Assembly (NCBI GenBank): GCA_018817315.1
Contig: JAHITV010000035.1
Coordinates: forward strand, 22,473 to 86,472
Length of the DNA: 64,000 nt
From: Patescibacteria group bacterium
GTDB lineage: Bacteria; Patescibacteriota; Patescibacteriia; UBA1558; UBA10009
Reading direction: 5' to 3'
Every line of letters begins with the position of its first letter. The stretch's first letter is position 1. Shown one piece after another: positions 3,243-33,941 of this stretch. Below the pieces are notes generated by a model. That model searched no databases, was not told the DNA's origin, and saw only the letters and a program-made list of their open reading frames with translations. Both the position numbers and the translations under genes were made by a program.

Positions 3243-3383
3243 TTAAGCTAAAATAAAAGTAGATCCAGAAAGGGTCTGCTTTTATTTAAATCAAGGAAGT
3301 TAAAATTTGATTGAAAATTTATTTTTAATATAATAAACTAATGTTGTCTAAATAATTAATAAATTGTATAATTAAATTAACTT

Positions 3384-4250
3384 ATGAAAGAAATTCGCAA
3401 AGCAGTTATACCAGTTGCTGGTTTTGGCACAAGGTTCTTACCAGCAACCAAAGCCCAGCCCAAAGAAATGTTGCCGATCGTTGATAAACCGGCTATTCAA
3501 TATATTGTAGAAGGTTGTGTGGCTGCTGGCATCAAAGATATAATCATTGTTACCAGTAGTAATAAACGGGCAGTGGAAGATCATTTTGATTATTCCTCGG
3601 AATTAGAAAAATGGTTGATAAAACAAAAAAAAATCAAACAATTACAGGAAATCAGAAGAATAGCTAAACTGGCCAACTTTATTTATATACGTCAAAAGGG
3701 TCACTTGGGAAATGGTACACCCGTCCTAAATGCCGAAGCAATTATTGGCAATGAACCTTTTGCTGTTTTTTGGGGAGATGAATTTTATCAAGGAAAAACT
3801 TCTTGGATTAAACAAATGATAAAAGTTTATCAGAAATATCATGACCCGGTTTTGGCAGTAACTAAAACAGATGCTGAAGGACAAAAAAGGTATGGCATTA
3901 TTGACGGCCTAGAAGTTGAAAAAAATATCTATCAGATAAAAAGGGTTGTCGAAAAACCCGGTCCCAAACTCGCTCCTTCAAAGTTAGCTATAATCGGCGG
4001 ACAAATTCTCACTCCTGATATTTTCCCTCTTTTGAAAAAATTGAAGCCAGGTAAAAATGGCGAGGTTTGGTTGGTTGATGCTATTCAGCAACTTAGCCAA
4101 AAAAGAACAATTTACGCTAAAAAGATTGAAGGTAAACTTTATGATGCAGGAAACTTAATGGGTTGGCTTAAAGCCAATATAGAATTGTCATTAACCCATC
4201 AAGATATTAAAGAAGAATTTAGAAAATATCTCAAAAAACTTAAAGTTTAG
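3384..4250 (+). CDS. galU: UTP--glucose-1-phosphate uridylyltransferase
   Basis: N-terminal IPVAGFGTRFLPATKAQPKEMLPIVDKP nucleotidyltransferase signature. About 288 aa, typical of GalU. Confidence 0.85.
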   Translation: MKEIRKAVIPVAGFGTRFLPATKAQPKEMLPIVDKPAIQYIVEGCVAAGIKDIIIVTSSNKRAVEDHFDYSSELEKWLIKQKKIKQLQEIRRIAKLANFIYIRQKGHLGNGTPVLNAEAIIGNEPFAVFWGDEFYQGKTSWIKQMIKVYQKYHDPVLAVTKTDAEGQKRYGIIDGLEVEKNIYQIKRVVEKPGPKLAPSKLAIIGGQILTPDIFPLLKKLKPGKNGEVWLVDAIQQLSQKRTIYAKKIEGKLYDAGNLMGWLKANIELSLTHQDIKEEFRKYLKKLKV

Positions 4251-4261
4251 ACCTTAATTTT

Positions 4262-5638
4262 ATGAACTTAATAAAACAAAAAAAGATAATCACTTTAGTT
4301 CTTATAGCGGTCCTAATAATGACTTCTGGTTTATCTTGTAAACTTTTGCCTACCAAAAAACCTCCTTTAAGTTTAACCAAACCTATTGAATTATCTTACT
4401 GGGGAGTGTGGGATAGCAGCGATGATTGGCAACCCCTAATTGATGATTTTAATATCATGCACCCTAACATTAAAATCATTTATAAAAAATTCAGGTATGC
4501 TGAATATGAACAAAAACTATTAGAAGCCTGGGCAGAAGACAGGGGGCCGGATATCTACAGTATTCCTGCTACTTGGCTAAAAAAGTATCAAGAAAGAATA
4601 ACTCCTATGCCCGCCAGTGTTAAATTATCTTTTCGGGAGGTTAAAAAAGTTTTGGGCAAAACCGAAATATCTGATGTCGTAAGACAACTGCCCACTTTTT
4701 CTTTAAATGACATTAAAAATAAATTTGTAGATGTAATTAATGATGATATTATTATGGATGGCCAGATTTATGGCCTACCTTTTAGTGTAGACACCTTAGT
4801 CCTTTATTATAACCGTGATATTTTGGATAGCAATGGCATAGCGGTCCCTCCTGGTAATTGGACTGAGCTTGCTGAAACTGTAAAAAAAATAACCAAAGTG
4901 GATAAAAATAATAACATTATCCAGTCAGCTATAGCTTTAGGCACAGCCAATAATGTCCCTCAAGCCTTTGATATTGTTTCTTTACTAATGATGCAAAACG
5001 GAACACAAATGATAAGCAGTACTGGTCAAGTTAATTTTCATTTATCTCCTACTAAAGAAAGAGATAATCTGCCCGGTCTGCAGGCTTTGCTCTTTTATAC
5101 TGATTTTGCCAACCCTATCAAGGAAGTATATTCTTGGAATGCAGAACAACTAAATGCTTTTGAAGCTTTTATTTCTGGAAAGTTAGCTATGCTTTATGGT
5201 TATTCCTATTATCTGCCCTTAATTAAAACTCAAGCGCCAAAACTGGATGTTGGCATTGCTCCTATGACCCAAATTCAAGGCGCTACCAACCCACTTAATT
5301 ACACTGATTACTGGGTAGAAACTGTTTCCCATAAAACTAAAAGTATTGATGCTAGTTGGGGCTTTTTAACTTTTGCTGCCAGTCAAAATGAAACAGAAAA
5401 ATACTTAGAAAAAACAAAAAAGCCAGCCGCTTTAAGAAATTTAATTACTAAACAAAGAGAAGATCCGGAAATCAGTGTCTTTGCCAACCAAACTTTATCA
5501 GCTACTCACTGGTATAAAGGTAAGGATATTCTAAAAGCAGAAGAAATATTTAAAGAGCTTATTGAGACTTTGCCCAACAGCGCTGAACCTACAAAATTAC
5601 TGGAATTAACTGCTAAAAAAATTAACTTAACTTTATAA
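4262..5638 (+). CDS. extracellular solute-binding protein (ABC transporter family 1 SBP-like)
   Basis: N-terminal signal anchor. YEQKLLEAWAEDRGPDIYS motif and overall length are typical of SBP_bac_1 sugar-binding proteins. Confidence 0.5.
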   Translation: MNLIKQKKIITLVLIAVLIMTSGLSCKLLPTKKPPLSLTKPIELSYWGVWDSSDDWQPLIDDFNIMHPNIKIIYKKFRYAEYEQKLLEAWAEDRGPDIYSIPATWLKKYQERITPMPASVKLSFREVKKVLGKTEISDVVRQLPTFSLNDIKNKFVDVINDDIIMDGQIYGLPFSVDTLVLYYNRDILDSNGIAVPPGNWTELAETVKKITKVDKNNNIIQSAIALGTANNVPQAFDIVSLLMMQNGTQMISSTGQVNFHLSPTKERDNLPGLQALLFYTDFANPIKEVYSWNAEQLNAFEAFISGKLAMLYGYSYYLPLIKTQAPKLDVGIAPMTQIQGATNPLNYTDYWVETVSHKTKSIDASWGFLTFAASQNETEKYLEKTKKPAALRNLITKQREDPEISVFANQTLSATHWYKGKDILKAEEIFKELIETLPNSAEPTKLLELTAKKINLTL

Positions 5639-6309
5639 TGAAACCTAAACCTTCCAGTCTTTTAATTTATTTTCTTATTCTAATTGGCTTGTTGTTTTTA
5701 CCACTGCTGGTTAAAGCGCAAATTTTACCTGCCTGCAGTACTACGGGTAATTGCGGAATCTGTGATTTTTTAGACACTTTTGTTAATATTATCCGTTGGG
5801 TATTGGGTGTGGTAGGAGGCCTGGCTTTATTACTGATGGTCTGGCACGCTTTTGGCTGGCTAACATCAGCAGGTAATGAAGAAAAAATAAAAACTTCGCG
5901 GCAAGGTATAGTACATACTATTTTAGGTGTGGTTATTATTTTAGTGGCCTGGCAGTTAGTTAATATTATTATTGTGCTGTTAGTAAGTCCGCAAGGTGGA
6001 AATGAAATTAAACTTTTTGGAAATAATGGCAAAATCTGGTACAGATACTGTAGTGAAGTAAATGAATGTATTGGCCGGGCAGATGGCAGTCCTTGTGGAG
6101 ATGGTTATTATTGTGAAAATCAAAGCTGTAATAACACCGGAGAAAGTGCTTGTAATTATTGGGCAACCTATAAGGATCCTGCTAAAATGGGCGGTACTAA
6201 TCCTTATGCTGAATACAGATGTTTAACTAAAGATCAATGTGATCCTTATGAAAATTTAGGTCCGGCTTACTGCCCAGGAACAGAAGAAAGCTGTTGTAAA
6301 CCCAAATAA
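5638..6309 (+). CDS. VirB2/TrbC-like pilin family protein, paralog 1, with Cys-rich N- and C-terminal extensions
   Basis: Signal peptide, then conserved two-helix core (ALLLMVWHAFGWLTSAGNEEKIKTSRQGIVHTILGVVIILVAW) shared with 8 downstream paralogs. C-terminal 90 aa contains about 16 Cys. ATG overlaps the upstream stop (TAATG). Confidence 0.55.
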   Translation: MKPKPSSLLIYFLILIGLLFLPLLVKAQILPACSTTGNCGICDFLDTFVNIIRWVLGVVGGLALLLMVWHAFGWLTSAGNEEKIKTSRQGIVHTILGVVIILVAWQLVNIIIVLLVSPQGGNEIKLFGNNGKIWYRYCSEVNECIGRADGSPCGDGYYCENQSCNNTGESACNYWATYKDPAKMGGTNPYAEYRCLTKDQCDPYENLGPAYCPGTEESCCKPK

Positions 6310-6343
6310 CTTAACCCATAAAATTATTTTAAACAAATCTTCT

Positions 6344-6727
6344 ATGAATTTATTTAAAAAAACAGTTGCTCTTATTATTTTTATTTTACTGTTTAATTTA
6401 TTAATCGGATATAATGCTAATTTGGTTTATGCGCAAAACACTAATGAATCTGGTACATATTTAGAAAATCCTTTGGGTTCAGAAAGTTTAACTGCCATTG
6501 ATATTTATGCCCGCCTTATTTATGCTTTTATGGGTTTTACTGGAATTTTAGCGTTAATTATGTTTATTCTTGGCGGTTTTCAGTGGATGACAGCCGGGGG
6601 TAATGCTGAAAAAATCAAAAAGGGCAGAGACACTTTAATTTGGGCTGTTTTGGGTCTAGTTATTATTTTTGCTAGTTACGCTATTCTTAGAGCTGTGTTT
6701 CAAACTTTACAATTTGGCGCAGGATAA
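6344..6727 (+). CDS. VirB2/TrbC-like pilin family protein, paralog 2
   Basis: Signal peptide plus core GGFQWMTAGGNAEKIKKGRDTLIWAVLGLVIIFASYAI. Confidence 0.6.
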   Translation: MNLFKKTVALIIFILLFNLLIGYNANLVYAQNTNESGTYLENPLGSESLTAIDIYARLIYAFMGFTGILALIMFILGGFQWMTAGGNAEKIKKGRDTLIWAVLGLVIIFASYAILRAVFQTLQFGAG

Positions 6728-6888
6728 ACTTATACCTAAAACTAGCTAAAAACAATCAATTATTGTATAATTATATTGATAAATTGGTTTCAAAGTTATC
6801 CACATTATTAATTAATAAATAAAATAATACACTGGAATTTTTATTCTTAAGTGAATATAATTTCCAAACGTGGAAGGGGGTGAAGACA

Positions 6889-7257
6889 ATGAAAAAATTT
6901 TTAACAAAGAAAAATTTAATTGCTCTGGCCGGAGGCCTGTTATGGGCAATCCCTCTAATGGTGGGAGCTCAAGCATCTTTAGGTATAGAGATTGGAGGTT
7001 CTACTGGTTTAGGTAGTCGTGATCTTAAAGAAACCATTGCTTCTGTTTTAAATGTACTTCTTGGTTTCTTGGGTATAATTGCAGTAATTGTTATCCTTCT
7101 AGGTGGTTTTAAATGGATGACAGCCGGGGGTAATGAAGATAAAGTAGCAGAAGCTAAAAAACTTTTAGGCGCGGGTATTATTGGCTTAATAATTATTCTA
7201 GCTGCCTATGCTATTGCTACTTATGTCATTAGTACCATTTCAACCGCCACTCAATAA
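6889..7257 (+). CDS. VirB2/TrbC-like pilin family protein, paralog 3
   Basis: Core GGFKWMTAGGNEDKVAEAKK. ATG at 6889 is preferred over the GTG at 6880 because a GAAGGGGG Shine-Dalgarno sits 6-10 nt upstream. Confidence 0.6.
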   Translation: MKKFLTKKNLIALAGGLLWAIPLMVGAQASLGIEIGGSTGLGSRDLKETIASVLNVLLGFLGIIAVIVILLGGFKWMTAGGNEDKVAEAKKLLGAGIIGLIIILAAYAIATYVISTISTATQ

Positions 7258-7399
7258 TCCCTGCTCCATAATAGTCAGCATTAATAACAAATTTTGTTAA
7301 ATTTACAATTTATACTATATCCCGTCCCGCCATTGGTATGGCGGGATAAGGCATAAATTGTAAGGATTATAAATTATTTATAATTTGAATCTTAAATTA

Positions 7400-7840
7400 A
7401 TGAGCTTTTTATTTAAAAAAAATAAATTATGGCAGTTGGGCTTTGTTGCCCTGTTTTTATTTTTAACCGCTTCTTTTTTATTGCCTTGTTCTCTTTTTGC
7501 TCAAGAAGCTCCGCCTCCTGCCAGTGCGGCCTTAGAAGGATTAGATTTAACTGCCCAAAAAGCTCAAATTAATACGGAAATTACTGCCACGCAAATGGTC
7601 GGTTATATTATAAACTTAATTCTAGGATTTTTAGGCGTTATCTTTTTGGTTTTGGTTATTTATGGCGGTTTTCAGTGGATGACAGCCGGCGGTAATGAGG
7701 AAAAAGTAAAAAAAGGACGTGACATGATTGTTCAAGCAGCTATTGGTCTGGCTATTATTCTCTTTGCTTTTGTTTTAACCAACTTTGTCATCTTCAGATT
7801 ACTTGGCATTGCTGTAGGAAATGGTTCTTCCCCTTATTAA
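7400..7840 (+). CDS. VirB2/TrbC-like pilin family protein, paralog 4
   Basis: Core GGFQWMTAGGNEEKVKKGRD. The ORF track begins at TTG 7385; the first ATG is at 7400. Confidence 0.55.
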   Translation: MSFLFKKNKLWQLGFVALFLFLTASFLLPCSLFAQEAPPPASAALEGLDLTAQKAQINTEITATQMVGYIINLILGFLGVIFLVLVIYGGFQWMTAGGNEEKVKKGRDMIVQAAIGLAIILFAFVLTNFVIFRLLGIAVGNGSSPY

Positions 7841-7849
7841 TTAAGAAAT

Positions 7850-8419
7850 ATGAAAATCAAAATCTTATTTGTAATAATTTTCTTTCTACTAGGATATTTC
7901 TTGTTCCCTAATTTATCTTTTGCTCAAAATATTGATGTTAGTGATACTTGCCCGCCTGGAATGTCTTTGCAGGACTGTATTAGAATGGGTTTAGGCCAAG
8001 TGGGTGATACCAGTGGTTATGGTCCGGCCGGACCCATAGAAGCCACTGCTATTTCCGAAAAAGTTGGTAATATTATTTCTTATGTTCTGGCTTTTTTAGG
8101 CGTTATCTTCTTGGTTATCACTGTTGCTTCTGGTATCCAATGGATGACAGCCGGCGGTAATGAGGAAGTGGTTAAAAAAGCGCGGACTAGACTGGTTAAT
8201 GCTACTGTGGGCTTAATTATTGTAGTAGCTGCCTATGCTATAACCTGGTTTGTAGTTACCAAACTTAGACAAAGTATTGATATAGGTGCTGGTTCTGGGT
8301 CTACCTCTTTGAGTTGTAGTGATCCCATTGACTGTGAAGGTACTAGTTGGGCTAATGAATGTTACAGTAGTGGTGGATCGGTTAATTGTATAGATAACTT
8401 TTGTGCATGTACTTATTAA
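7850..8419 (+). CDS. VirB2/TrbC-like pilin family protein, paralog 5, with Cys-rich C-terminal tail
   Basis: Core SGIQWMTAGGNEEVVKKARTRL. Tail CSDPIDCEGTSWANECYSSGGSVNCIDNFCACTY. Confidence 0.6.
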   Translation: MKIKILFVIIFFLLGYFLFPNLSFAQNIDVSDTCPPGMSLQDCIRMGLGQVGDTSGYGPAGPIEATAISEKVGNIISYVLAFLGVIFLVITVASGIQWMTAGGNEEVVKKARTRLVNATVGLIIVVAAYAITWFVVTKLRQSIDIGAGSGSTSLSCSDPIDCEGTSWANECYSSGGSVNCIDNFCACTY

Positions 8420-8441
8420 TAAAATATTATATTGGATATAA

Positions 8442-8807
8442 ATGAAAAAAATCTTCACAATCATTTTAATATTATTCTTTCTGTTTTTAAGCACTTCTTT
8501 TGTTTTAGCAGCTGATCCTTTGGAAGATAATCTTAAGGCAATCGGCCAAGGCGCTGATTATTCTACCAATGTTGGCGAGGAAACCATTCCTTCTTTTATT
8601 GGCCAAATGGTAGCTATTATCTTGGGTTTTATCGGCTCAATCTTTTTCATTATTGTTGTTTATTCTGGTATTCAGTGGATGACAGCCGGAGGTAATGAAG
8701 AAGTGGTTAAAAAATCACGTACCAGGTTAATTAATAGTATTATTGGACTGGCTATTACAACTGCTGCTTATTTTATTACCCAGCTAATCAGTAGAGCTTT
8801 TATCTAG
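8442..8807 (+). CDS. VirB2/TrbC-like pilin family protein, paralog 6
   Basis: Core SGIQWMTAGGNEEVVKKSRTRL. Shares a 20+ bp identical DNA stretch with paralog 5. Confidence 0.6.
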   Translation: MKKIFTIILILFFLFLSTSFVLAADPLEDNLKAIGQGADYSTNVGEETIPSFIGQMVAIILGFIGSIFFIIVVYSGIQWMTAGGNEEVVKKSRTRLINSIIGLAITTAAYFITQLISRAFI

Positions 8808-8830
8808 ATTATAAACTGCTTTTTAACTCC

Positions 8831-9418
8831 ATGAACAAACTTTCAACTAAGATAGGGCTATTGTTTCTGTCTGTATTAATACTTTTTTGTATTTTACCGA
8901 TAAATACACTGGCCCTAGATATTGATAAATATTCTGATATTATAGCTGAAAGAGGAGGTTATCAAACTGGCGGCGATGTTGAAACTTTTTTTGACACCTT
9001 TATAGGAAGAGTTATTGCTTATGTATTAGGATTTGTCGGCATAATCTTTTTGATTTTGATTATTATTTCCGGCTTTCAGTGGATGACAGCCGGAGGAAAT
9101 GAAGAAAAAGTCGGTATAGCCCGCAAACGGATAGTTAGCGCAGTAATTGGTTTATTTATTATCCTTGCCGCCTATCTTATAACTTATTTTGTCTACACTA
9201 CTATTAAAACTGCCAGCGAAGGGGGAACGCCAGCAAATTTACAAGAGGGCTTTGAATGTCAATATAATACTGATTGCACTGATCCTAGCGAACCTTACTG
9301 TCAGCATTTCCCTACCTGGAGTTTTTGCGCAAGATGTACAGAAGACAGCCATTGCGGACCAGGAGAACAATGTTGTACATCTTTAACTAGTAACTGGTGC
9401 GCTGGCTCTTGTAATTGA
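8831..9418 (+). CDS. VirB2/TrbC-like pilin family protein, paralog 7, with Cys-rich C-terminal tail
   Basis: Core SGFQWMTAGGNEEKVGIARKR. Tail CQYNTDCTDPSEPYCQHF...CARCTEDSHCGPGEQCCTSLTSNWCAGSCN. Confidence 0.6.
   Translation: MNKLSTKIGLLFLSVLILFCILPINTLALDIDKYSDIIAERGGYQTGGDVETFFDTFIGRVIAYVLGFVGIIFLILIIISGFQWMTAGGNEEKVGIARKRIVSAVIGLFIILAAYLITYFVYTTIKTASEGGTPANLQEGFECQYNTDCTDPSEPYCQHFPTWSFCARCTEDSHCGPGEQCCTSLTSNWCAGSCN
9024..9090 (+). repeat. 67-bp segment identical to 9628..9694 (inside paralog 7 core region)
   Basis: Direct read: tattaggatttgtcggcataatctttttgattttgattattatttccggctttcagtggatgacagc is identical in both genes. Confidence 0.85.
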
Positions 9419-9428
9419 TAATAATAAT

Positions 9429-10022
9429 ATGAAACCTGCCAAAAAAATTTGTATAATCATAATTTTTATTTCATTATTGACAATTATTTTTTCCTATCAA
9501 ATAAATAACGCTCTAGCCTTTACTCAAAGTGAAAAATATAAAGGTTATCTTGATATTGCCAGAGAACAAAGCGGCTATAATACAATAAATGATGTTAGTC
9601 AGCTACCTGCTAGAATTATTGTCTTGATATTAGGATTTGTCGGCATAATCTTTTTGATTTTGATTATTATTTCCGGCTTTCAGTGGATGACAGCAAGCGG
9701 CAATGAGGAAAAAATTAGCAGTGCCCGTAAACGAATAATTAATGCTTCTATTGGTCTGGGTATTACTTTATGCGCCTTTATTATCTCTTATGGTATTTTT
9801 AAACTGTTTTATGAACAAACCTTACAAGTACCAAGCGGAGGTATAGAACCGCCGCCAGGGGCAGGAGAAATAATTCCTTGCAGTTCTGATATACAATGTG
9901 AAGATAGATCGCCAAGAATTTATTGTCTTAGTGGAAACTGTGTTGAATGCATAGAAGACGCTCACTGTACTCTTGATAAATATTGTCATCCCAGTTGGCA
10001 TGCCTGCCTGCCTTCTCCTTAA
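9429..10022 (+). CDS. VirB2/TrbC-like pilin family protein, paralog 8, with Cys-rich C-terminal tail
   Basis: Core SGFQWMTASGNEEKISSARKR. Tail CSSDIQCEDRSPRIYCLSGNCVECIEDAHCTLDKYCHPSWHAC. Confidence 0.6.
   Translation: MKPAKKICIIIIFISLLTIIFSYQINNALAFTQSEKYKGYLDIAREQSGYNTINDVSQLPARIIVLILGFVGIIFLILIIISGFQWMTASGNEEKISSARKRIINASIGLGITLCAFIISYGIFKLFYEQTLQVPSGGIEPPPGAGEIIPCSSDIQCEDRSPRIYCLSGNCVECIEDAHCTLDKYCHPSWHACLPSP
9628..9694 (+). repeat. 67-bp segment identical to 9024..9090 (inside paralog 8 core region)
   Basis: Same 67-mer as above. Confidence 0.85.
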
Positions 10023-10042
10023 AGATTATTTATTATACCTAT

Positions 10043-10450
10043 ATGAAAATTATAAATAAAATTAAAATCAAATTAATTCTTTTACTGGCGAGTTTAACTT
10101 TTTTGCCGGCTGAAATTTCTAAAGCCCAAAATCCTCTTGAGCGTTTAAAAAGTACTGCTTCTCAATCCGGCTATGCCACTCAACAGGTTACCCCGGCAGA
10201 AACTGTAGCTACTATTATTATTTATGTGCTGGGATTTATTGGTTTAATTTTTCTGGCAGTTACAATTTTTTCCGGCTTTCAGTGGATGACAGCCGGAGGC
10301 AATGAGGAAAAAATCAGTGAAGCTAAAAAACGTTTGCAGTATGCAGTTATTGGCTTACTAGTAATCTTAGCGGCTTATACTATAACCATCTTTGTTTCTC
10401 GTGCTCTAATTCATTCAACTACCCAATATTATTACGGTCCTTATCCATGA
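10043..10450 (+). CDS. VirB2/TrbC-like pilin family protein, paralog 9
   Basis: Core SGFQWMTAGGNEEKISEAKKR. Start at internal ATG (MKIINKIKIK) rather than the overlapping upstream ATG at 9983. Confidence 0.55.
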   Translation: MKIINKIKIKLILLLASLTFLPAEISKAQNPLERLKSTASQSGYATQQVTPAETVATIIIYVLGFIGLIFLAVTIFSGFQWMTAGGNEEKISEAKKRLQYAVIGLLVILAAYTITIFVSRALIHSTTQYYYGPYP

Positions 10451-10469
10451 AAATATTTATTGATTTATA

Positions 10470-10497
10470 AGAGCCCTGAAAAGTGGCTCTTTTTTAT
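10470..10497 (+). terminator. rho-independent terminator closing the pilin array
   Basis: agagcc-ctgaaaagt-ggctct hairpin followed by TTTTTTATTT. Confidence 0.55.
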
Positions 10498-10525
10498 TTA
10501 AATTAAAATTGATAAAATAGGAATA

Positions 10526-12490
10526 ATGCCAATCTTTCTAAAAAAACATTCTAAAAAAATCCTGTGGCTGGGGATCTTTCTTTATTTTTCTATTTTTTGT
10601 GGAATCTGTATCTGGAAATATTCCCAGTTTGGCTATAATGGCTTGGATTTAGCGATTTTTAATCAGGTTTATTCCAACTCAACTGTTGGGCAACTTTTTC
10701 AATTTACTATTCATCCCCAATCTTATTTAGGCGATCACCTGGCTTTGATTATTATTCCCCTGCTACCGCTTTATTATTTTTTCCGACATCCTCTTTGTTT
10801 ATTAATCATGCAAACCTTGATTATTGCTCTTACTGCTTGGCCTATTTATAAAATCTCTCAAAAATTGTTTGCTGGCTTATGGCCTTTGTTTTTTAGTTTG
10901 GCCTGGCTATTTAATCCTTTTACGCAAAATATTAATATTTTTGAGTTCCATCATCTGCCTTTTGCTGTTTTTTTGATTTTTTGGGCTTTTTATTTTTACC
11001 AAAATAAACGTTTTACTTATTTTATTCTGTTTACTGTACTTAGTTTAATGGTCCGTGAAGATGTTGCTTTGGTAATGGTAATGTTTCCGATTCTGGCTCT
11101 TTTAGAAAAAAGAGGGATTAAATGGATTATCTGGCCTGGTTTAATTTCTCTTGGTTGGTTTTTTGTAGCTATAAAAATAATCTCTTATTTTTCTCCGGAA
11201 AGTCAATATAAATTTCTTTATTACTATTCCTGGCTTGGTCAAAGCTGGACAGAAATAATCATCAATACTTTCGCTCATCCTTTATTAGTGCTTAAACACC
11301 TTGCCACTTGGCATAATTTGATGTTCACCTTGGGGTTAATGCTACCCTTTGCTTATCTTTTAAAAATCAGATATTTATTATTAGGATTTCTGATTTATTT
11401 ACAGCTTATTTTTGGCGGTTCTAGTAATTCCACTATTATTCTTAGTCTTCATTATTCAGCTTTGCTTTTACCAGCGCTTTTTATTGCTTTTATTTATTTT
11501 ATAAAAAATATTACGAAATTATCTCCGCAAAATAAATTAAAGCTTTTTTTAGGCAGAGAAAAATTATTAACTGTCAGTATTATAACTATAGCAATTATTT
11601 ATTCCTGCTTGACCCTTGGTCCCTTACCTGCAGTAATAAAAAATCTGGTTAAACCAACCAAAACAATAGAAATTACTAATGCTAAAAAGGAATTCCTACA
11701 AACTGTATCAGTTAAAAACAGTGTTGTTACTACTTATGAATTTTTAGCACCGCTTTCTAATCGTTCTGATATTTACTCACTTCATTATGCTTTTATTGGC
11801 AAACAACAATTCTCTGATGTTAATTATACTTTGCCTGAAAATTTAGATGTAATGCTTATTGACTTTGATGATTTTCTTACTTATGAATTGCAATTCCCTA
11901 ATATTAAAGCTTGGCAACAATATTATCAAGATGGCGATAATAATATAAGAAAATTAATAAAGGAACGAGACTTTAAAGTAACTAAAGTTTTTGATTCTTT
12001 AGTCCTAATGGAAAAAGATAAGGACTTGGATATAATTTTATATGAAAGAGGAAATAATTTTAATAATATTCAACACCCCAAAAAAATAAATCTTGATAAC
12101 AAGATAAATTTTCTAGGCTGGAATGATAATCAATCAATCTCTGATCAAAATTTAAAATCTTTCAGTTTTTATTGGCAAGCTACTAAAAAACTGGAAGAAA
12201 ATTACCAGCTTAAATTAATTTTAAAAGATGAAAATGATCAGATTATTTATGAAAAAATTTATGCCTTAGCTTATGGTCTTTGCCCTACTACTGAATGGCA
12301 AACCAATGAAGTAATTAAAACAAATTATTGGTTTTATACCCCTCAAAAAATAGCTAATCTTAGCTATAAAATAGAACTTGAATTAGTTGAGTTAAAGGGC
12401 TTTTTAAAACTTGATGGCTTACGTTCTGTTATACCAATAATTACTAAAGAAAATAAATTAACTCCCCATATCAAATTACTTGATAAATAA
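10526..12490 (+). CDS. DUF2079-like polytopic membrane protein
   Basis: More than 12 predicted TM helices. N-terminal YSQFGYNGLDLAIFNQVYSNS motif resembles DUF2079 proteins, with a large C-terminal extracytoplasmic domain. Confidence 0.45.
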   Translation: MPIFLKKHSKKILWLGIFLYFSIFCGICIWKYSQFGYNGLDLAIFNQVYSNSTVGQLFQFTIHPQSYLGDHLALIIIPLLPLYYFFRHPLCLLIMQTLIIALTAWPIYKISQKLFAGLWPLFFSLAWLFNPFTQNINIFEFHHLPFAVFLIFWAFYFYQNKRFTYFILFTVLSLMVREDVALVMVMFPILALLEKRGIKWIIWPGLISLGWFFVAIKIISYFSPESQYKFLYYYSWLGQSWTEIIINTFAHPLLVLKHLATWHNLMFTLGLMLPFAYLLKIRYLLLGFLIYLQLIFGGSSNSTIILSLHYSALLLPALFIAFIYFIKNITKLSPQNKLKLFLGREKLLTVSIITIAIIYSCLTLGPLPAVIKNLVKPTKTIEITNAKKEFLQTVSVKNSVVTTYEFLAPLSNRSDIYSLHYAFIGKQQFSDVNYTLPENLDVMLIDFDDFLTYELQFPNIKAWQQYYQDGDNNIRKLIKERDFKVTKVFDSLVLMEKDKDLDIILYERGNNFNNIQHPKKINLDNKINFLGWNDNQSISDQNLKSFSFYWQATKKLEENYQLKLILKDENDQIIYEKIYALAYGLCPTTEWQTNEVIKTNYWFYTPQKIANLSYKIELELVELKGFLKLDGLRSVIPIITKENKLTPHIKLLDK

Positions 12491-14120
12491 CCACCTCATT
12501 ATTCTGATAAACAGGTTTAAGATAATTTTTTTCTTGCGGATTAAAACTTTCTAAAAATCTTTCTTGCGAACCGTAAAATATATAGTTAATACCCTCATAT
12601 TTTAACCACTCATATTTTTCTTTATCCCCTTTATTGGTTTTAAAAAACCATAATTTGACTTTGAATAATTTGAACATCCAATCGCCTGTCTGATGACCGT
12701 GACCGATATACACTTTATTGGCAGTAACAGCTGGAATTATATTACCGGTTTTTGCACTGCTTAAAATTACCTTATCCTTACTGATGTTATTTTTAAGCCA
12801 AAGCATGGCTTGATATTCTTCTTGTTTGAGATAATAAAGCGGAGGCCTGGTGCTTAAAATCACAATATCTTGACCGACATTATAAAAAGTGGAAGAAATT
12901 AATAAAAACCCCAAACTCATTACTAAAAAAGCGCGAACAGAATAATATTTAAGCATTTCCTGCCAGAAAAATCTTTTATTCAGATAATTAATGACTAAAT
13001 ATAATCCTAAAACTGCAATTATAACCATTGGCAAATGCAGTCCGTTTGATAATCTTCTTTGAAACTGCAAAGGCACAAATAATAAAAACCAACCAACAAT
13101 TGACCAAATGCCCAAGAAACGCCAATAATTATTTTGGCTCTTTACTGCTTTATAAATACCGAATAAATAGAAGATAAAAATCAAACCATAGCCAACAGCA
13201 TAATTAAAAAATCTAGGAGATAAAGTTATATTTTGTACTGCCCAGACTGCAAAAGAGGAATCAGTGAATTTTAACCATAAAAAATATAAAATAGCCAAGC
13301 TGGAAACCACGAATATAACTGCCAGTTTAGAAAACTGTTTCCATGAGATCTTTTTTTGTTTTAGACAATTAACTAAAAACCAGCAACCAACCACAGTATA
13401 AATAATTATCAGATCATAAGGATGAAAAATACCTAAGAATAAAGTTATAAAACTGATAAATATAACAGATAACCAATTAGTTTTGTTTAATCGTTCAATT
13501 AACCACCAAAAAATAAATAAAATGAAAATTTGTGAAAGAATAAATAAAGGTGAATGATATAAAGTTAAAAAAGTATTACCTTCCGAAACCCACATATCTG
13601 TACCAAAAGTATTATACATATTTTCTGCGCTCCAAGGTTTATTAAGAGTAAATACTCCTAAACCTGATCCCAAACAAATAGCAAAAAAACAAACTTTTTT
13701 CCATTTGATTTTATTAAAAAATCTACTAATAAACAGATAAATAAAATATAAAAAAACAGCACCTAGTAAAATTCTGGCAAAATGGAAAATAAATACTTTT
13801 GATAAACCGGTTATTGCCGTCAGCCAACCCAAAACCAGCCAAACCGGCGAAAAAATCTTTGCTACAGCTGCTTCGGAAGTATAAAGATTATGGAATAAAA
13901 GATGGCCTTGCATGGCTTCTTCTATTTGCGAAAAATAAACCATTTTATCTGCTCCGGCAATAACAGTAAAGCCAGTGTAATGTAAATTTGGAGGAGTAGA
14001 AAGCCAGCCATAAATGACTGGTATCACCGAAATTAATAAGGTAAGAAAAATCAGGAAAAAAACAAAATTCTTTTCTTTACCACTGATTGATTTGTGAACT
14101 TCTTTAATAAAAGAAAACAT
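12471..14120 (-). CDS. polytopic membrane protein, putative GT-C fold glycosyltransferase (PMT/ArnT-like)
   Basis: 549 aa with about 12 TM helices, a first-loop acidic motif and a C-terminal soluble domain. Architecture resembles GT39/GT83 enzymes; no motif-level certainty. Confidence 0.4.
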   Translation of the reverse strand: MFSFIKEVHKSISGKEKNFVFFLIFLTLLISVIPVIYGWLSTPPNLHYTGFTVIAGADKMVYFSQIEEAMQGHLLFHNLYTSEAAVAKIFSPVWLVLGWLTAITGLSKVFIFHFARILLGAVFLYFIYLFISRFFNKIKWKKVCFFAICLGSGLGVFTLNKPWSAENMYNTFGTDMWVSEGNTFLTLYHSPLFILSQIFILFIFWWLIERLNKTNWLSVIFISFITLFLGIFHPYDLIIIYTVVGCWFLVNCLKQKKISWKQFSKLAVIFVVSSLAILYFLWLKFTDSSFAVWAVQNITLSPRFFNYAVGYGLIFIFYLFGIYKAVKSQNNYWRFLGIWSIVGWFLLFVPLQFQRRLSNGLHLPMVIIAVLGLYLVINYLNKRFFWQEMLKYYSVRAFLVMSLGFLLISSTFYNVGQDIVILSTRPPLYYLKQEEYQAMLWLKNNISKDKVILSSAKTGNIIPAVTANKVYIGHGHQTGDWMFKLFKVKLWFFKTNKGDKEKYEWLKYEGINYIFYGSQERFLESFNPQEKNYLKPVYQNNEVVIYQVI

Positions 14121-14189
14121 CTCTTATATTTTAATAAAGATTTTAAAATAAACAATGGAAAATTATTAAAGTTATTGCTGGCCTCTTTT

Positions 14190-15758
14190 TTATTTCCATA
14201 AATTAGTTTGCCAATAATAAATTTTGCTTTCTGAATCTTCATATAGCAAAGTAAAGTTAGGGTTTAGTTTTAAAGTATTATCTAGGGTCTGATGTTTTTT
14301 ATCCAAAAAAACATAATCAGCTTTAAACTGTTCTTGAATAATTTTACCTAAATCTATCTGTCTACTGCCTAATGTTATATTAACATACTGCCAATATTTC
14401 TCCTTATTATATTCATACATAAAAGTGGGGTCAAGACCAGTAAGATAATAATTATGATCATTGTAATAAAAAAGGGCGGGAAAATCATCCCAATCAGCAT
14501 GAAATATTACTGAATGAAGCGGCGTATTCTCTCTTAACCAACTACTGGCTTTTTGGTAATGGTTTAAGGGAAATCCTTGCTCCATATCCTTTTTAACTGT
14601 TCTTAAATCATAAGGGATATTAATAATAAGGCCTAGTAAGATTACTGAAAACAATAAGCTAAAGGTCCATTTCCAGGTTCTACTTAAACCTAACCAGAGT
14701 TTTTGCGCTATTCTACTTTTAATGAAATCACTTAAACTAAAAGCAAAGAAAATAACAGTAAAAGGCACATACACCTCAACATAACGGCGGGATTTTAAGG
14801 TTAAAAGAAAAAAAGCTATGCCAAGTACGCCCCATAACCAGGAATAAACTGACTGTTTTTTTAAAGTTAAAATAAAAACGAAAATACCAACTAATAATAA
14901 AGAACAAATCAAAGGAGCGTCAGTTATTAGTTTTAAGAAACCATAAGGATACCATTCACCGCCCACTCCTATAACACGGTGATAATTTATCACAGCAATT
15001 TTTACAAATTGTTGCCAATAAAAAAACAAATTAGCAGGAAAATAAGGATTAATAACAATACCCGCTAAAATACCGCCGCCCAAACATGCTAATTCTGAAG
15101 CAGGAGACAATAATTTTTGATTAGTCTGATGTTTTCTACGAATAATCTTAACTATTTTAACTAAAATAGCATACAATACGCCCATTACTACTATTAAAGG
15201 CCAACCAGCATAAAGCCAAACGGAAGCAAAAGCAATAATAAATAACAGGATTTTCTTTTGATGGGTTAAACAATAAAAAGCTAAAATCATCAGAATTAAA
15301 AAAACTACTGGTACTTTGACTAAACTGATTCTAAAAAGCCAAGGTTGCGCTGCTAATAAAAAACAGATGAAAATAAAAGGCCATTTAATATGATACTGTT
15401 TAAATAACCAATAAATAATTAAAACTAAAAGAGTAGCAAAAATTACAGTAGCAGCTTTTACCCCGACTAGAGGGTTAAAAAAACTCACGACTGGTATTAA
15501 GAGTAAGTGATAAAGAAAATGATGGTCAACAAAAACATCTTTGAGGTTTGTTTCCTGGAGCCAAGGCAGTTGTTTAAGAATTTTTCCTGAACTTAATAAT
15601 TCTGATACTTTAGCATGATAAAAAGAATCTGGTTCAGGCAAGGTCTGGCTTGACTGTAGCCAAAAAAATAAGGTTAAAGCTAAAAGAACCACTAAAAAAT
15701 AGTCAAAAAGATACTTATAATTTATTCTTTCTAGCCATAATTTTAATTCATTAAACAT
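14190..15758 (-). CDS. polytopic membrane protein, putative GT-C fold glycosyltransferase (PMT/ArnT-like)
   Basis: 522 aa and multi-TM. Loop-1 PDSFYHAK resembles the DE/DxxY(H) motif of GT-C mannosyltransferases. C-terminal periplasmic domain. Confidence 0.4.
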   Translation of the reverse strand: MFNELKLWLERINYKYLFDYFLVVLLALTLFFWLQSSQTLPEPDSFYHAKVSELLSSGKILKQLPWLQETNLKDVFVDHHFLYHLLLIPVVSFFNPLVGVKAATVIFATLLVLIIYWLFKQYHIKWPFIFICFLLAAQPWLFRISLVKVPVVFLILMILAFYCLTHQKKILLFIIAFASVWLYAGWPLIVVMGVLYAILVKIVKIIRRKHQTNQKLLSPASELACLGGGILAGIVINPYFPANLFFYWQQFVKIAVINYHRVIGVGGEWYPYGFLKLITDAPLICSLLLVGIFVFILTLKKQSVYSWLWGVLGIAFFLLTLKSRRYVEVYVPFTVIFFAFSLSDFIKSRIAQKLWLGLSRTWKWTFSLLFSVILLGLIINIPYDLRTVKKDMEQGFPLNHYQKASSWLRENTPLHSVIFHADWDDFPALFYYNDHNYYLTGLDPTFMYEYNKEKYWQYVNITLGSRQIDLGKIIQEQFKADYVFLDKKHQTLDNTLKLNPNFTLLYEDSESKIYYWQTNLWK

Positions 15759-30246: not shown

Positions 30247-31356
30247 TTACTGCCTGATAGGCATCACTAAATATAAATAATTATTGTTATCTGCTGGTTT
30301 TAAAATTCCTGGCACCCTGTCTCCTACCATTTCTAATATTGCTTCACTGGTTCCTAAATTATTTAAACCATCCAAAAGATAGCGGTAATTAAAAACCATT
30401 TCATTCTCTTCGCCCTCTATTTGTATGGGTAAAGTAATGGTGTTTTCTCCCACTCCACTATTAGTTGCTGAAATTACTAACTGATTTTTTGCCGAATTTA
30501 ACACTAATTTTACATCATTAATTCCTGGTTTACAAAAAAGAGCGGCGCTTTTTATTATTCGCGACAACTCTGCTACATTAATTTTTGTTTGGGTTTTATG
30601 TTTATCAGGAATAATTTGCTGATAATCAGGATATTGCCCTTCAATTAAACGAGAAATTAATTCTGTTTCTCCGTTAATCAAGAAAAGTATTTGATTTTCA
30701 TTAATATAAATCGTGGTATCAGATTCATCATTATCTTCTAAAATCCTAAAAACTTCTTGTAAAGTTCTTAAAGGTACAACCACTTTATACTCACTATTTA
30801 TTGTTTCGTTTAGGGTAATTCTTTTTTCTGCCAAACGATAACTATCAGTACCAACCAAAGTTAAGGTTTTATTATTTATAAAAAATAGTGCTCCGCTAAT
30901 TTCTGGTCTAGATTCATCTAAAGTAATAGCAAATATAACCTGGCTTAGGGCTTGTTTTAAATCATTGCTTTTTATTAAAATGGGTTGTTTTCTCTCTATT
31001 TCAGGAATTACCGGAAAATCATTAGCTTCCATACCCTTAATATAAGTTTGGTGGTTTTCACAATTTATATAAAGGTTTTGCTCTTTTAATTCAACCTCGA
31101 TGTTTTTTTTAGGTAAAAGAGAAATATAATCAGTAATTAATTTTGCTTGGGTGGTGAAAATACCCTCTTTTTCTACTTTACCCCTTAATTGTGTATTAAC
31201 ACCAATTTCTAAGTTAGTAGCGCTTAAATTAATTAATCCTTTTTTAGCCTGGATGAGAACATTATTTAAAATAGGTAAAGCAGTGCTACGACCAGCAATA
31301 TGACTCACAACCAACAAAGCTTTATTAAAATTTTCTTGTGTACAAATAAATTTCAT
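30247..31356 (-). CDS. dnaN: DNA polymerase III subunit beta (sliding clamp)
   Basis: MKFICTQENFNKALLVVSHIAG N-terminus. 369 aa, immediately downstream of dnaA. Confidence 0.9.
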   Translation of the reverse strand: MKFICTQENFNKALLVVSHIAGRSTALPILNNVLIQAKKGLINLSATNLEIGVNTQLRGKVEKEGIFTTQAKLITDYISLLPKKNIEVELKEQNLYINCENHQTYIKGMEANDFPVIPEIERKQPILIKSNDLKQALSQVIFAITLDESRPEISGALFFINNKTLTLVGTDSYRLAEKRITLNETINSEYKVVVPLRTLQEVFRILEDNDESDTTIYINENQILFLINGETELISRLIEGQYPDYQQIIPDKHKTQTKINVAELSRIIKSAALFCKPGINDVKLVLNSAKNQLVISATNSGVGENTITLPIQIEGEENEMVFNYRYLLDGLNNLGTSEAILEMVGDRVPGILKPADNNNYLYLVMPIRQ

Positions 31357-31613
31357 ATATATATTTATTTATTAGTTATTAATAATAAAGGAAGTGTAAA
31401 TGTTGAAAAGATTATTTTTTCTTTGTTGTTTAGCCAAATTTTTAATTCTATTAGGTGTGAAAAACCTGCTAATCATTTTTTAATAAACAGGGTAAAAGTA
31501 ACAATAATAGTTTAAAAGGTAAAATGTTTGTGGATATTTATTTGTTTAATCAACAGTTAATACAGTTGTTTTTCTAAAACTTATTTCAAACCTTTACCCA
31601 ACTTATTAAAAGT

Positions 31614-32975
31614 TTATTGGTATAATTTTTGTTTTATTAAACCCAGATCATTCTTCATTTTTTCATCTTTCTCTAAAAACCTAATTATTTTATTACAAGC
31701 ATGAATAGCTGTAGTATGATCTCTACCTCCTAATTCTTGTCCTATTGAAGGATAAGATGATTTAATTTCTTCTCTCATTAAATACATTACTATTTGGCGC
31801 GGTATTACCAACTCTTTACGTCGGCAATTACCAATTAAACTTTCTATACTTATATCAAAATACTCTGAAACAATTTTAATTATTTTTTTGGGGGTTAAAT
31901 TACCCTTTAAAGAGCTGGCAGCTAAATTATCTATAATTTGTTTAGTAGACTCTAGGGTTATTTCAGTTTTATTAAGTTGATAATGAGCAATAATACGGTT
32001 TAGAGCCCCTTCTAATTCTCTGATGTTATTTTGGATGTTTTTAGCTAAATATTCAATAATTTCCGGCTTTAGGGTAATGTTTTTTTCGTGACTTTTAGCC
32101 TCTAAAATGGCAATTCTAGTTTCTAAATCCGGAGAAGAAATATCAGCAATCATTCCCCATTCAAATCTGGAAACAAGCCTTTGTTCAATATCAGGAATAG
32201 CTTTAGGTGGTCGGTCAGAACTTAAAACAATCTGTTTATTATTTTGATGAAGAGCGTTAAAGGTATGAAAAAATTCCTCTTGGGTTTGTTCTTTGCCGGA
32301 AATAAAATGAATGTCGTCAATTAATAGAACATCAACTTGTCGGTAGGTGTTTTTAAACTTTTCGGTTTGGCCGCTTTTAATAGCTTGTATATAATCATTA
32401 GTAAACTTTTCACTGGTAACAAATAAAATTTTATTTTTAAGTTTTTTTTCCAAAAGGTAGTTACCAATAGCTTGCACTAAATGGGTTTTACCTAAACCTA
32501 CGCCGCCATATATAAAAAGTGGATTATAGGAAAATCCTGGTTTTTCCGCTACTGCTTTAGCGGCAGCATTAGCAAGCTCATTACCTTTACCAACCACAAA
32601 AGTATCAAAAGCGTATTTTTTATTTAAACCAAACTCATTTAATTTAACTTTTTCTATAATTTTTTCTTCGTCTAAAACTGCAGAACGAGGAGTAATAGCA
32701 TCTATCTTTAATCTACTTATTGTTTTACTGGTTTCTACTATGTATTCTATATGCTCAATAGTTCCGCTTGTTATATTTTTTAAAGCTTGAAGTATTTGAT
32801 CGCTGTATTTTTTTTCCAACCAAGCTTTGGTAAAGGCATTGGGCGTTCCAATAATTACCTTACTATTTTCCAAAGAGCTGATAAAAGTGTTTTTAAACCA
32901 AGTGGTAAAATTTGCTTTACTGATTAAAAGTTCTAGTTCGCCCAGGGTGACTTGCCAAAGTTGTTCGTTGGTCAT
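31614..32975 (-). CDS. dnaA: chromosomal replication initiator protein DnaA
   Basis: Walker A GGVGLGKTHL, Walker B LLIDDIHF, and the C-terminal DNA-binding signature IGQELGGRDHTTAIHACNKI. Confidence 0.95.
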   Translation of the reverse strand: MTNEQLWQVTLGELELLISKANFTTWFKNTFISSLENSKVIIGTPNAFTKAWLEKKYSDQILQALKNITSGTIEHIEYIVETSKTISRLKIDAITPRSAVLDEEKIIEKVKLNEFGLNKKYAFDTFVVGKGNELANAAAKAVAEKPGFSYNPLFIYGGVGLGKTHLVQAIGNYLLEKKLKNKILFVTSEKFTNDYIQAIKSGQTEKFKNTYRQVDVLLIDDIHFISGKEQTQEEFFHTFNALHQNNKQIVLSSDRPPKAIPDIEQRLVSRFEWGMIADISSPDLETRIAILEAKSHEKNITLKPEIIEYLAKNIQNNIRELEGALNRIIAHYQLNKTEITLESTKQIIDNLAASSLKGNLTPKKIIKIVSEYFDISIESLIGNCRRKELVIPRQIVMYLMREEIKSSYPSIGQELGGRDHTTAIHACNKIIRFLEKDEKMKNDLGLIKQKLYQ

Positions 32976-33167
32976 ATTTATTTTAGTAGTTTTTAAAGTA
33001 ATTGAATCTTATCACAAAAAAAAGTTTGTCAAAATACCCATAATTAACAAATAAATGTTTATAAATTGTGCATAGAATTGGGATAACATTTAATAATTGA
33101 CATAAAAAATAAAAATTGTTAGAATTATTACGCTTAATTAAAAAAACTTCATAGTACATTCACTTTT

Positions 33168-33305
33168 ATGCCTAAAAGAACTTACCAACCGAAAAAAAGG
33201 AAAAGATCAAAAAAACACGGTTTTAGAAAAAGAATGGCCAGTAAAAATGGCAAGAAAATTTTAAAAAGAAGACGTGCTAAGAAACGAACCAGATTATCTC
33301 ATTAG
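33168..33305 (+). CDS. rpmH: 50S ribosomal protein L34
   Basis: Hand translation gives [45 protein letters not shown] (45 aa). It is absent from the ORF track because of the length cutoff. Canonical position upstream of rnpA and divergent from dnaA. Confidence 0.85.
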
Positions 33306-33369
33306 TTAAATTTTGCCCTAGTGATTATAATTTTAGAGCAGTAATTATTAATTAGGGCAATTTTATTTT

Positions 33370-33708
33370 ATGATTCCTAAAACCAATCGTCTTTTAAAAG
33401 AAAAAAACTTTAAAAGAGTGGCTAAAAACGGGAAGTATTTTTTTGGCCGAACTTTAGTTTTAAAAGTAATTAAATCACCATTAACAGTAACTCGTTTAGC
33501 TATTATTGTTTCTGCAAAAGTTTCAAAAAAAGCAGTTGAGCGTAATAAAATAAAACGTCGTTTAAGGGAAGTTATCCGTTTAAATTTACCTAATCTAAAA
33601 AAAGGTTTTGATGTTATGATTTTAGTAAAACCCTTGGCTAAAGAAAAAAATTCCGCCGAATTATCCCAAATTTTAGAAGAGTTATTTAAAAAAGCTAATT
33701 TATGTTAA
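33370..33708 (+). CDS. rnpA: ribonuclease P protein component
   Basis: Basic 112 aa with [25 protein letters not shown], downstream of rpmH. Confidence 0.85.
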
Positions 33709-33938
33709 AGAAAGCAATCCTAAAATTAATTTTAATATACCAAAAAACTTTATCTCCTGATACTGGTTGGTTAGCTATAAAACATCCACATGGCTTTTGT
33801 CGTTATTATCCTACTTGTTCAAGTTATAGTTATCAAGCTATAAAAAGACACGGTTTGGTCAAAGGTTTTTTAAAATCTTTAATAAGAATATTAAAATGTA
33901 ACCCTTTTTCTAAAGGTGGTTATGATCCTTTAAAATAA
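33702..33938 (+). CDS. yidD: membrane protein insertion efficiency factor YidD
   Basis: [11 protein letters not shown]...[19 protein letters not shown], the conserved YidD motif. Confidence 0.85.
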
Positions 33939-33941
33939 TAT

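Follow-up and report, generated by a model that had tools for sequence, protein, structure and literature searches.

A tandem array of nine VirB2-like pilin genes, encoded apart from type IV secretion genes, in a Patescibacteria chromosome

A 64,000-nt stretch of DNA from an ultra-small Patescibacteria group bacterium (contig JAHITV010000035.1 of assembly GCA_018817315.1, positions 22,473 to 86,472; hereafter the window) carries, on its forward strand at 5638-10450, nine consecutive pilin genes whose open reading frames (ORFs) are all intact. Designated W1 through W9 in gene order, they encode what family profiles identify as VirB2-like pilins of the family described in Pfam model PF18895 (T4SS_pilin). 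We consider it probable, though well short of certain, that the nine are components of the Patescibacteria type IV secretion system (T4SS) and are old, individually conserved paralogs with divided roles. The assignment to a T4SS is supported by the PF18895 matches, by cross-matches to the TrbC model, by the essential T4SS cluster of a saccharibacterium that includes such pilins, by the frequent placement of pilin genes near virB4 in other Patescibacteria, and by the presence of VirB4 in all eight relatives with an orthologous array that a published survey lists. The division of roles is supported by collinear orthology, by the conservation of W3, and by a conserved hairpin 3' of W3.

The original prediction for this region, made from the letters of the window and a list of its ORFs, described nine same-strand genes with a common architecture of signal peptide, variable region, highly conserved two-helix core, and variable tail. 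The ORFs bear this out, with the starts of W3, W4, and W9 revised using gene calls on identical public contigs, ribosome-binding and signal-peptide context, and the lengths of NCBI proteins. All nine N-termini have a hydrophobic, signal-peptide-like segment that ends in an A-x-A/Q-type site. A variable stretch of 15 to 45 residues follows, then a helix, a loop, a second helix, and a tail of 2 to 103 residues. The loop between the helices, W-M-T-A-G-G-N-E-E-K, is near-invariant across the array, with a net charge of 0 to +2. Hydropathy analysis finds the two further helices in eight of the nine proteins; the second helix of W6 is just under threshold, yet aligns with the others. The combination that marks PF18895, a signal peptide plus two helices with a short loop between them, is found in W1 through W9 by hydropathy, with alignment supplying the W6 helix, and in AlphaFold2 (AF2) models of W3 and W7. 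The W3 model has a mean predicted local distance difference test score (pLDDT) of 81, rising to about 95 in the hairpin, with helices at residues 46-78 and 83-121, while the W7 model has helices at 51-86 and 91-130. Pairwise protein identity within the array averages 35% (range 20-43%), at 45% for the core and 24% outside it, and the core DNA is 60-78% identical between copies.

Matches to PF18895 exceed the gathering cut-off of 26.6 bits for all nine proteins, with scores of 29.1 to 43.5 bits (E-values of 1e-6 to 3e-11), much better than chance would give, and precomputed PF18895 matches on identical public proteins concur. The TrbC/VirB2 model PF04956 (cut-off 27.9 bits) gives sub-threshold matches to seven of the nine over most of the profile. 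W3 scores highest, with 23.7 bits (E 5.6e-5) across positions 4-97 of the 98 in the model, and the other six reach 14-17 bits. A third model, NF045849 (Mbov_0395 pilin-like; cut-off 40 bits), matches all nine over nearly the full length of its 80 positions, at 25.1-38.4 bits, in each case below threshold. Homology searching found 109 relatives, all of which have PF18895 and many of which also have PF04956, including many homologs at 40-60% identity. Source names of some homologs are "pilin" or "type IV secretory pathway VirB2 component", and NCBI naming already applies "pilin" to at least two of the array genes, W8 and W9, the latter identical to MBU1037114.1. The family is very large, as its profile matches 78,845 cluster representatives (clustered at 50% identity) at E <= 1e-3. 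The VirB2/TrbC-like kinship originally proposed for the array therefore stands, with PF18895 passing throughout and many close homologs matching both models.

Two other identities for these genes carry almost no weight, namely small membrane proteins resembling holins or bacteriocin-immunity proteins, and functionless, decaying duplicates. Weak Pfam matches to Holin_9 and Holin_SPP1 (E 0.04-0.2) would favor the former, but they fall far under their cut-offs, where PF18895 passes in nine of nine, and the window has no phage or bacteriocin context. Decay is contradicted by nine intact ORFs with conserved orthologs. Both the pseudogene and the holin readings were rejected on these grounds.

The earlier description also implied novelty, and here the literature decides otherwise. 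In a survey of 3,035 Patescibacteria genomes based on PF04956 and PF18895, Quinonero-Coronel et al. (2025; PMC12102498) found 441 VirB2 arrays; these contain 2-11 genes, are spread over 383 assemblies, and show a mean identity of 25% and a maximum of 54%. Their definition of an array is two or more PF04956 or PF18895 genes, in tandem or one gene apart, in a Patescibacteria genome; W1 through W9 are nine adjacent genes of this kind, and their mean identity of 35% represents a comparably high divergence. Pilin genes lie near virB4 in 1,135 of 1,948 VirB4-positive assemblies with VirB2-like pilins and away from it in about 40% (PMC12102498). In the saccharibacterium Southlakia epibionticum ML1, a series of pilin genes lies inside the T4SS cluster and is essential (Wang et al. 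2023, PMC10633639). A 2025 FEMS review points out that no other monoderm T4SS has VirB2-like pilins and puts forward, as speculation, a conduit resembling a pilus. The array in the window shares with those published its PF18895/PF04956 family, its tandem same-strand arrangement, a copy number within 2-11, low identity between copies, a patescibacterial chromosome, and a position distant from virB4. It differs from the Saccharibacteria case, whose array is embedded in the T4SS cluster; the arrangement in the window and in 80 orthologous loci is a unit of galU, a solute-binding protein (SBP) gene, and pilin genes, with no T4SS gene within 10 kb. Loci related to this array also go beyond the published range, reaching 12-16 copies. 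The locus is thus an ordinary example of a published and common kind of array, and beyond published accounts we infer only a conserved SBP-pilin operon and an organization into major and minor subunits.

The 80 loci used for comparison were taken from species-representative genomes, using the paralog alignment of W1 through W9 as the query, and all 80 come from lineages of the candidate phyla radiation (CPR). Many GTDB-representative records with clear CPR-type loci (L004, L007, L012, L013, L015, and others) are titled "uncultured Gammaproteobacteria bacterium" (metagenome-assembled genomes, TPA_asm), in what looks like a systematic mislabel. Array copies were counted with a hidden Markov model built from the nine paralogs. 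Tandem arrays appear in almost all of the loci, with 1 to 16 copies, a median of 5, and nine or more in 13 loci. The copy number of nine is high, as had been noted at the outset, but it is not exceptional.

Members of the closest loci (L003 to L006) map to the array in order, W1, W2, W3, W4, and so on to W9. In most loci examined, the first three positions belong to W1-, W2-, and W3-type genes, and the number of W4-W9-type genes differs from locus to locus. The first-position gene maps to W1 in each of the 14 loci shown, and 68 related pilins were assigned to the W1 type by a median margin of 20 bits. Identity between orthologs reaches 83% (for W3), versus about 35% among paralogs. Because the mapping is collinear and orthologs are far closer than paralogs, the copies are taken to be old, ordered, and individually conserved. 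By sequence comparison, then, the array did not expand recently; its members are positional orthologs in an ancient, fixed order, which argues for divided roles over ongoing diversification.

W3 is the most conserved member of the array in the comparison with related loci, with orthologs at 67-83% identity in the nearest loci and a median of 55% over 61. It is also set apart by its punctuation. A strong ribosome-binding site, GGAAGGGGG, precedes its ATG at 6889, a promoter-like hexamer lies in the gap upstream, and a strong RNA hairpin follows its stop codon (Table 1). The 90-nt stretch at 7296-7385 folds with a minimum free energy (MFE) of -31.3 kcal/mol (z = -5.4), and the hairpin matches no Rfam family, an Rfam scan of the window having returned tRNAs only. 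Hairpins of -25 kcal/mol or stronger occur within 100 nt past the stop codon in 70% of 50 W3 orthologs, compared with 0-30% for the other types, and in related loci the genes at array positions 2 and 3 are followed by gaps that are consistently longer than the others. The core-only makeup of W3, its top rank in conservation, and the promoter-like site, strong ribosome-binding site, and conserved 3' hairpin that it has to itself make it the probable major pilin subunit.

The variable ends of the proteins show an organization of their own. Cys-rich tails occur in W1, W5, W7, and W8. Of the 14 Cys residues of W1, 3 precede the hairpin and 11 belong to the tail, and totals in the segments predicted to lie outside are even in every case (3+11 in W1, 2+6 in W5, 10 in W7, 8 in W8). 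The 3+11 split in W1 hints at a disulfide between the exposed N- and C-terminal segments. The tail of W7 (residues 140-195) is modeled by AF2 at pLDDT 73-88 as four short strands in a compact, beta-rich mini-domain. A loose pattern, C-x2-[ND]-x-[DEQ]-C ... C-[LI]-x-D-x-x-C, describes the tails encoded at 6100-6309 (W1), 8290-8419 (W5), 9250-9418 (W7), and 9860-10022 (W8), and recurs in homologs P0002-P0005 and P0011. Some relatives carry the pilin core fused 2-8 times per chain, or as the N-terminal part of proteins 2,184-5,006 aa long. Such fused or giant forms were found in L008, L010, L015, L019, L045, L072, L073, and L081, and as P0072, P0112, P0198, and P0202; in L073 and L081 they constitute a second locus type beside an ordinary array in the same genome. 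Because relatives fuse extra domains to the C-terminus, extending chains to as much as 5006 aa, the C-terminus is probably exposed.

Between W7 and W8, an exact tract of 67 nt (9024-9090, identical to 9628-9694) covers helix 1, within surrounding DNA that is only 47-60% identical; this contrast points to a short gene conversion that homogenized the core. The W7 and W8 orthologs in L003 share only 17 nt. The tract is one of several features that could suit a locus for diversification or antigenic variation, with pilins alternately expressed or recombined to shift surface specificity, as proposed for the VirB2 paralogs of Anaplasma and Bartonella; the original prediction suggested a dedicated diversification locus. 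The exposed N- and C-terminal segments do vary around a constant core, the W4-W9 types do differ in copy number among genomes, and host-range adaptation has been raised as a possible role of pilin arrays (PMC12102498). However, the order and identity of members are kept across deeply diverged genomes, where each resembles its ortholog much more than its paralogs. Every copy is full-length and has a start site of its own, all nine lie in a single terminated unit, and silent cassettes are absent. No inverted repeats flank any array gene, the hairpin 3' of W3 excepted, and the conversion homogenizes the core instead of the variable parts. Positional orthology in particular speaks against classical antigenic variation, so that diversification as the purpose of the locus seems to us distinctly improbable.

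The original prediction reported no gene for VirB4, VirB6, or VirD4 within at least 5 kb on either side of the array, and this holds over a far greater distance. Window ORFs of at least 120 aa include no Pfam match to VirB4, VirB6, or VirD4, and neither do gene calls on overlapping public contigs, which extend from 4 kb upstream to 10 kb downstream of the window; this leaves a span of about 78 kb without T4SS genes, reaching some 9.7 kb to the upstream side of the array and some 63 kb to its downstream side. In the 80 orthologous loci with 10-kb flanks there is likewise no T4SS gene. ORFs of at least 450 aa with a Walker A motif were collected from these loci as VirB4 candidates, and proved instead to be UvrA, FtsK, SMC, DnaA, PilB/GspE-type, ABC, and FtsH-like proteins. 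Co-encoding with VirB3, VirB4, and VirB6, as known for TrbC/VirB2 pilins, is thus not seen from 4 kb before the window to 74 kb after its start, nor in the orthologous loci. Separation of pilin operon and machinery is the rule in this lineage, for which an array without linked machinery is typical. Relatives with an orthologous array that appear in Table S1 of PMC12102498 are all VirB4-positive (eight of eight), and all belong to GTDB class ABY1, the class of the nearest relatives.

Because no T4SS gene lies near the array or its orthologous loci, the array is linked to the machinery by homology and co-occurrence only. This separation weighs against a role in a T4SS, and several further results must be set beside it. 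None of the nine proteins reaches the gathering cut-off of PF04956, and two have no match to it at all. A Foldseek search of the PDB with the W3 model returned nothing at E <= 0.001, the top hits being generic helical hairpins, led by an ATP synthase c subunit (E 0.86). The family profile, searched against PDB sequences, recovered no solved VirB2 or TraA, and made one chance match (E 5.8) in a Cys-rich region. The two-helix hairpin is a non-discriminating fold, and with both searches empty, kinship to the solved VirB2 and TraA pilins is a matter of Pfam-level sequence similarity and not of structure. The conserved neighbors of the array are glycan and SBP genes, not secretion genes. According to the 2025 FEMS review, moreover, no pilus has been observed on any Patescibacterium.

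These observations leave some room for a different function, in which the hairpin is a mere membrane anchor and the proteins do not polymerize but serve in surface display or in the envelope, together with the co-transcribed SBP lipoprotein and the neighboring glycan enzymes and independently of any T4SS. It agrees with the conserved neighborhood, which consists of galU, the SBP gene, and genes of GT-C-like or Wzx/Wzy type and in no case includes T4SS genes, with the anchor-like placement of the core, repeated 2-8 times in a chain or leading a giant protein, and with the non-specific outcome of the W3 fold search. Against an anchor, conservation peaks in the short loop, whether cytoplasmic or lumenal, and not in the helices that would do the anchoring, a pattern suggestive of a common partner or of an assembly interface. 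The cross-matches to TrbC/VirB2 also speak against it, as does the fact that in other classes of Patescibacteria the same family sits within T4SS clusters and is essential with them. Since the loop outranks the helices in conservation and the family is embedded in essential T4SS clusters elsewhere, we disfavor the anchor function and regard it as rather unlikely, though worth keeping in view.

If the nine are indeed T4SS pilins, each precursor would be exported by the Sec pathway and its signal peptide cleaved. The hairpin would then insert in the membrane with both ends, the variable N-terminal stretch and the tail, outside and with the near-invariant basic loop, WMTAGGNEEK..K.AR, in the cytoplasm. 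This topology is suggested by hydropathy, by the charge of the loop, by the AF2 model, and by the even numbers of Cys in the outer segments. By analogy with VirB2 and TraA pili, a VirB4-containing machine encoded elsewhere in the chromosome would extract the hairpins and polymerize them into a pilus-like filament or conduit directed toward a host cell. In such a filament the invariant loop might line the lumen while the variable ends decorate the exterior. Conservation and punctuation signals would make W3 the major subunit and the others specialized or minor ones, with W1 and W2 as conserved specialized subunits and W4 through W9 as a more plastic set, several of which would bear small disulfide-rich display domains.

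Coordinates of the pilin genes, the two genes that precede them, and the associated signals are given in Table 1. The stop codon of the SBP gene overlaps the start codon of W1 (ATGA, a 4-bp overlap at 5638). Among the related loci, 70 were eligible for a comparison of this junction, and in 62 of them a same-strand SBP homolog sits directly upstream of the first pilin gene, the gap often being -3 (the same 4-bp overlap). A galU homolog occurs within 3.5 kb on the upstream side of the array in 53 of the 63 loci eligible for that gene. Upstream of galU, the region 3251-3372 contains a terminator-like hairpin and then promoter-like sites (at 3307-3372), and galU is the probable first gene of the transcription unit. 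Downstream of W9, the segment 10451-10510 folds with an MFE of -12.7 kcal/mol (z = -2.9), of which the hairpin alone (centroid) accounts for -11.7. The 4-bp overlap of SBP gene and W1, the conserved adjacency in related loci, and the terminator after W9 all suggest that the array is probably co-transcribed with galU and the SBP lipoprotein gene. As far as gene order and sequence can tell, the galU/SBP/pilin operon is conserved in class ABY1. NCBIfam models give the SBP only weak matches to carbohydrate-binding SBPs. The SBP-pilin linkage, the positional orthology, the W3 hairpin, and the Cys-rich tails are not described in PMC12102498.

Table 1. Pilin array, preceding genes, and associated signals (positions are those of the window).
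Feature	Position	Strand	Description
galU	3384..4250	+	UTP-glucose-1-phosphate uridylyltransferase; TIGR01099 339 bits vs 326.8 cut-off; Pfam NTP_transferase
Orphan solute-binding protein (SBP_bac_1)	4262..5638	+	Pfam PF01547, PF13416; lipobox SGLSC
W1	5638..6309	+	223 aa; PF18895 35.3 bits; divergent core WLTSAGNEEK; 103-aa Cys-rich tail
W2	6344..6727	+	127 aa; PF18895 39.0 bits; conserved position-2 type; positional orthologs at 41-75% identity
Promoter-like TATAAT hexamer after TG	6766..6771	+	Within the 161-nt gap ahead of W3; putative, read from sequence
W3	6889..7257	+	122 aa; core only; PF18895 43.5 bits (top of nine); revised start
RNA hairpin 3' of W3	7302..7364	+	Strong; inverted repeat I1; terminator, attenuator, or mRNA-stabilizing element
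W4	7400..7840	+	146 aa; PF18895 33.5 bits; revised start, from the gene call on an identical contig
W5	7850..8419	+	189 aa; PF18895 29.1 bits; 2 Cys in N-terminal variable part, 6 in tail
W6	8442..8807	+	121 aa; PF18895 29.3 bits
W7	8831..9418	+	195 aa; PF18895 36.3 bits; 10-Cys C-terminal mini-domain; 100% identical to NCBI MBU1037112.1
W8	9429..10022	+	197 aa; PF18895 34.9 bits; 8-Cys tail
W9	10043..10450	+	135 aa; PF18895 37.5 bits; revised start
Intrinsic-terminator-like hairpin and T-run	10469..10499	+	End of array unit; AGAGCCCTGAAAAGTGGCTCTTTTTTATTT

Just past the array, at 10526-15758, are genes for three large polytopic membrane proteins, one with DUF2079 and two without a Pfam family, of which one has a weak match to STT3-like oligosaccharyltransferases (E 4e-5). 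DUF2079 and two GT-C-like membrane proteins adjoin arrays in 18-27 of the related loci. Other recurrent neighbors there are Wzx, Wzy_C (the O-antigen ligase/O-oligosaccharyltransferase family), GT2, and GT87, all of them envelope-glycan genes. Glycosylation of the pilins is one possibility that this neighborhood raises.

A more specific proposal is that the galU/SBP/pilin array of ABY1 forms a self-contained, conserved surface module. The orphan SBP would work specifically with the pilins, for example by capturing host-derived sugars at a filament or conduit, or by helping in assembly, and the nine pilins would form a fixed heteromer of the major W3, the conserved minor W1 and W2, and display-domain variants. 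We rate this proposal as speculative and unlikely; if true, such a module would be the first concrete handle on the function of the Patescibacteria T4SS pilus. In the one patescibacterial species tested, T4SS and pilins are essential (PMC10633639), and the W1-W9 locus leaves the wider picture of their role in Patescibacteria unchanged. What it could offer, through its conserved gene order, a probable major pilin with a conserved 3' hairpin, a translationally coupled SBP lipoprotein, and disulfide-rich display tails, is a guide to which subunit to tag or image and to whether the SBP is a member of the system.

Comparison with better-known systems places the array further. The VirB2/TrbC pilins of diderm T4SSs (VirB2 of the T-pilus, TrbC of RP4, TraA of F) are similarly small, with a long signal peptide and two helices joined by a short charged loop, and the sub-threshold similarity of W3 spans nearly the whole TrbC model. 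Against this, W1 through W9 fall under the PF04956 cut-off, have no detectable match to solved pilin structures, come from a monoderm host, are not encoded beside virB3 and virB4, and in several cases have extra Cys-rich C-terminal domains. The virB2 clusters of Anaplasma phagocytophilum and Bartonella likewise contain several diverged tandem copies, for which a role in surface variation has been proposed, as cited in PMC12102498, where the comparison with Patescibacteria arrays was already drawn. Those are alphaproteobacterial PF04956 pilins of diderm, effector-translocating T4SSs in animal pathogens, whereas the genes here are ancient positional orthologs in a monoderm episymbiont lineage. 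Mbov_0395 and MMCAP2_0565 of Mycoplasma integrative and conjugative elements (ICEs), the proteins behind NF045849, are also two-helix pilin-like proteins of the monoderm type, but single-copy in an ICE conjugation module. Operons for the major and minor pilins of type IV pili provide an analogy only: W3 resembles a conserved, separately punctuated subunit gene among less conserved ones that share an assembly core, while fold and machinery are unrelated and W1 through W9 have no prepilin-peptidase motif.

The remainder of the window is chromosomal, with housekeeping content that includes glycogen and sugar metabolism, ruvC, yebC, a class A penicillin-binding protein, dnaN, dnaA, yidC, nusA, an H+-PPase, trigger factor, and ssb. 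The genes dnaN and dnaA lie at 30.2-33.0 kb and, together with yidC, occupy 30247-34667, while cumulative GC skew reaches its minimum at about 30-38 kb; this gene cluster and the skew minimum indicate that the replication origin is probably at 30-38 kb. The array lies about 21 kb from dnaA, a placement consistent with the report that T4SS genes are often close to dnaA in Patescibacteria (PMC12102498). At 56053-63699, far from the array, a gene encodes a 2,548-aa protein with SpvB, TcdB_toxin_midN, FG-GAP, and RHS-repeat domains, a polymorphic toxin of Rhs/Tc-toxin-like type in a reduced CPR genome.

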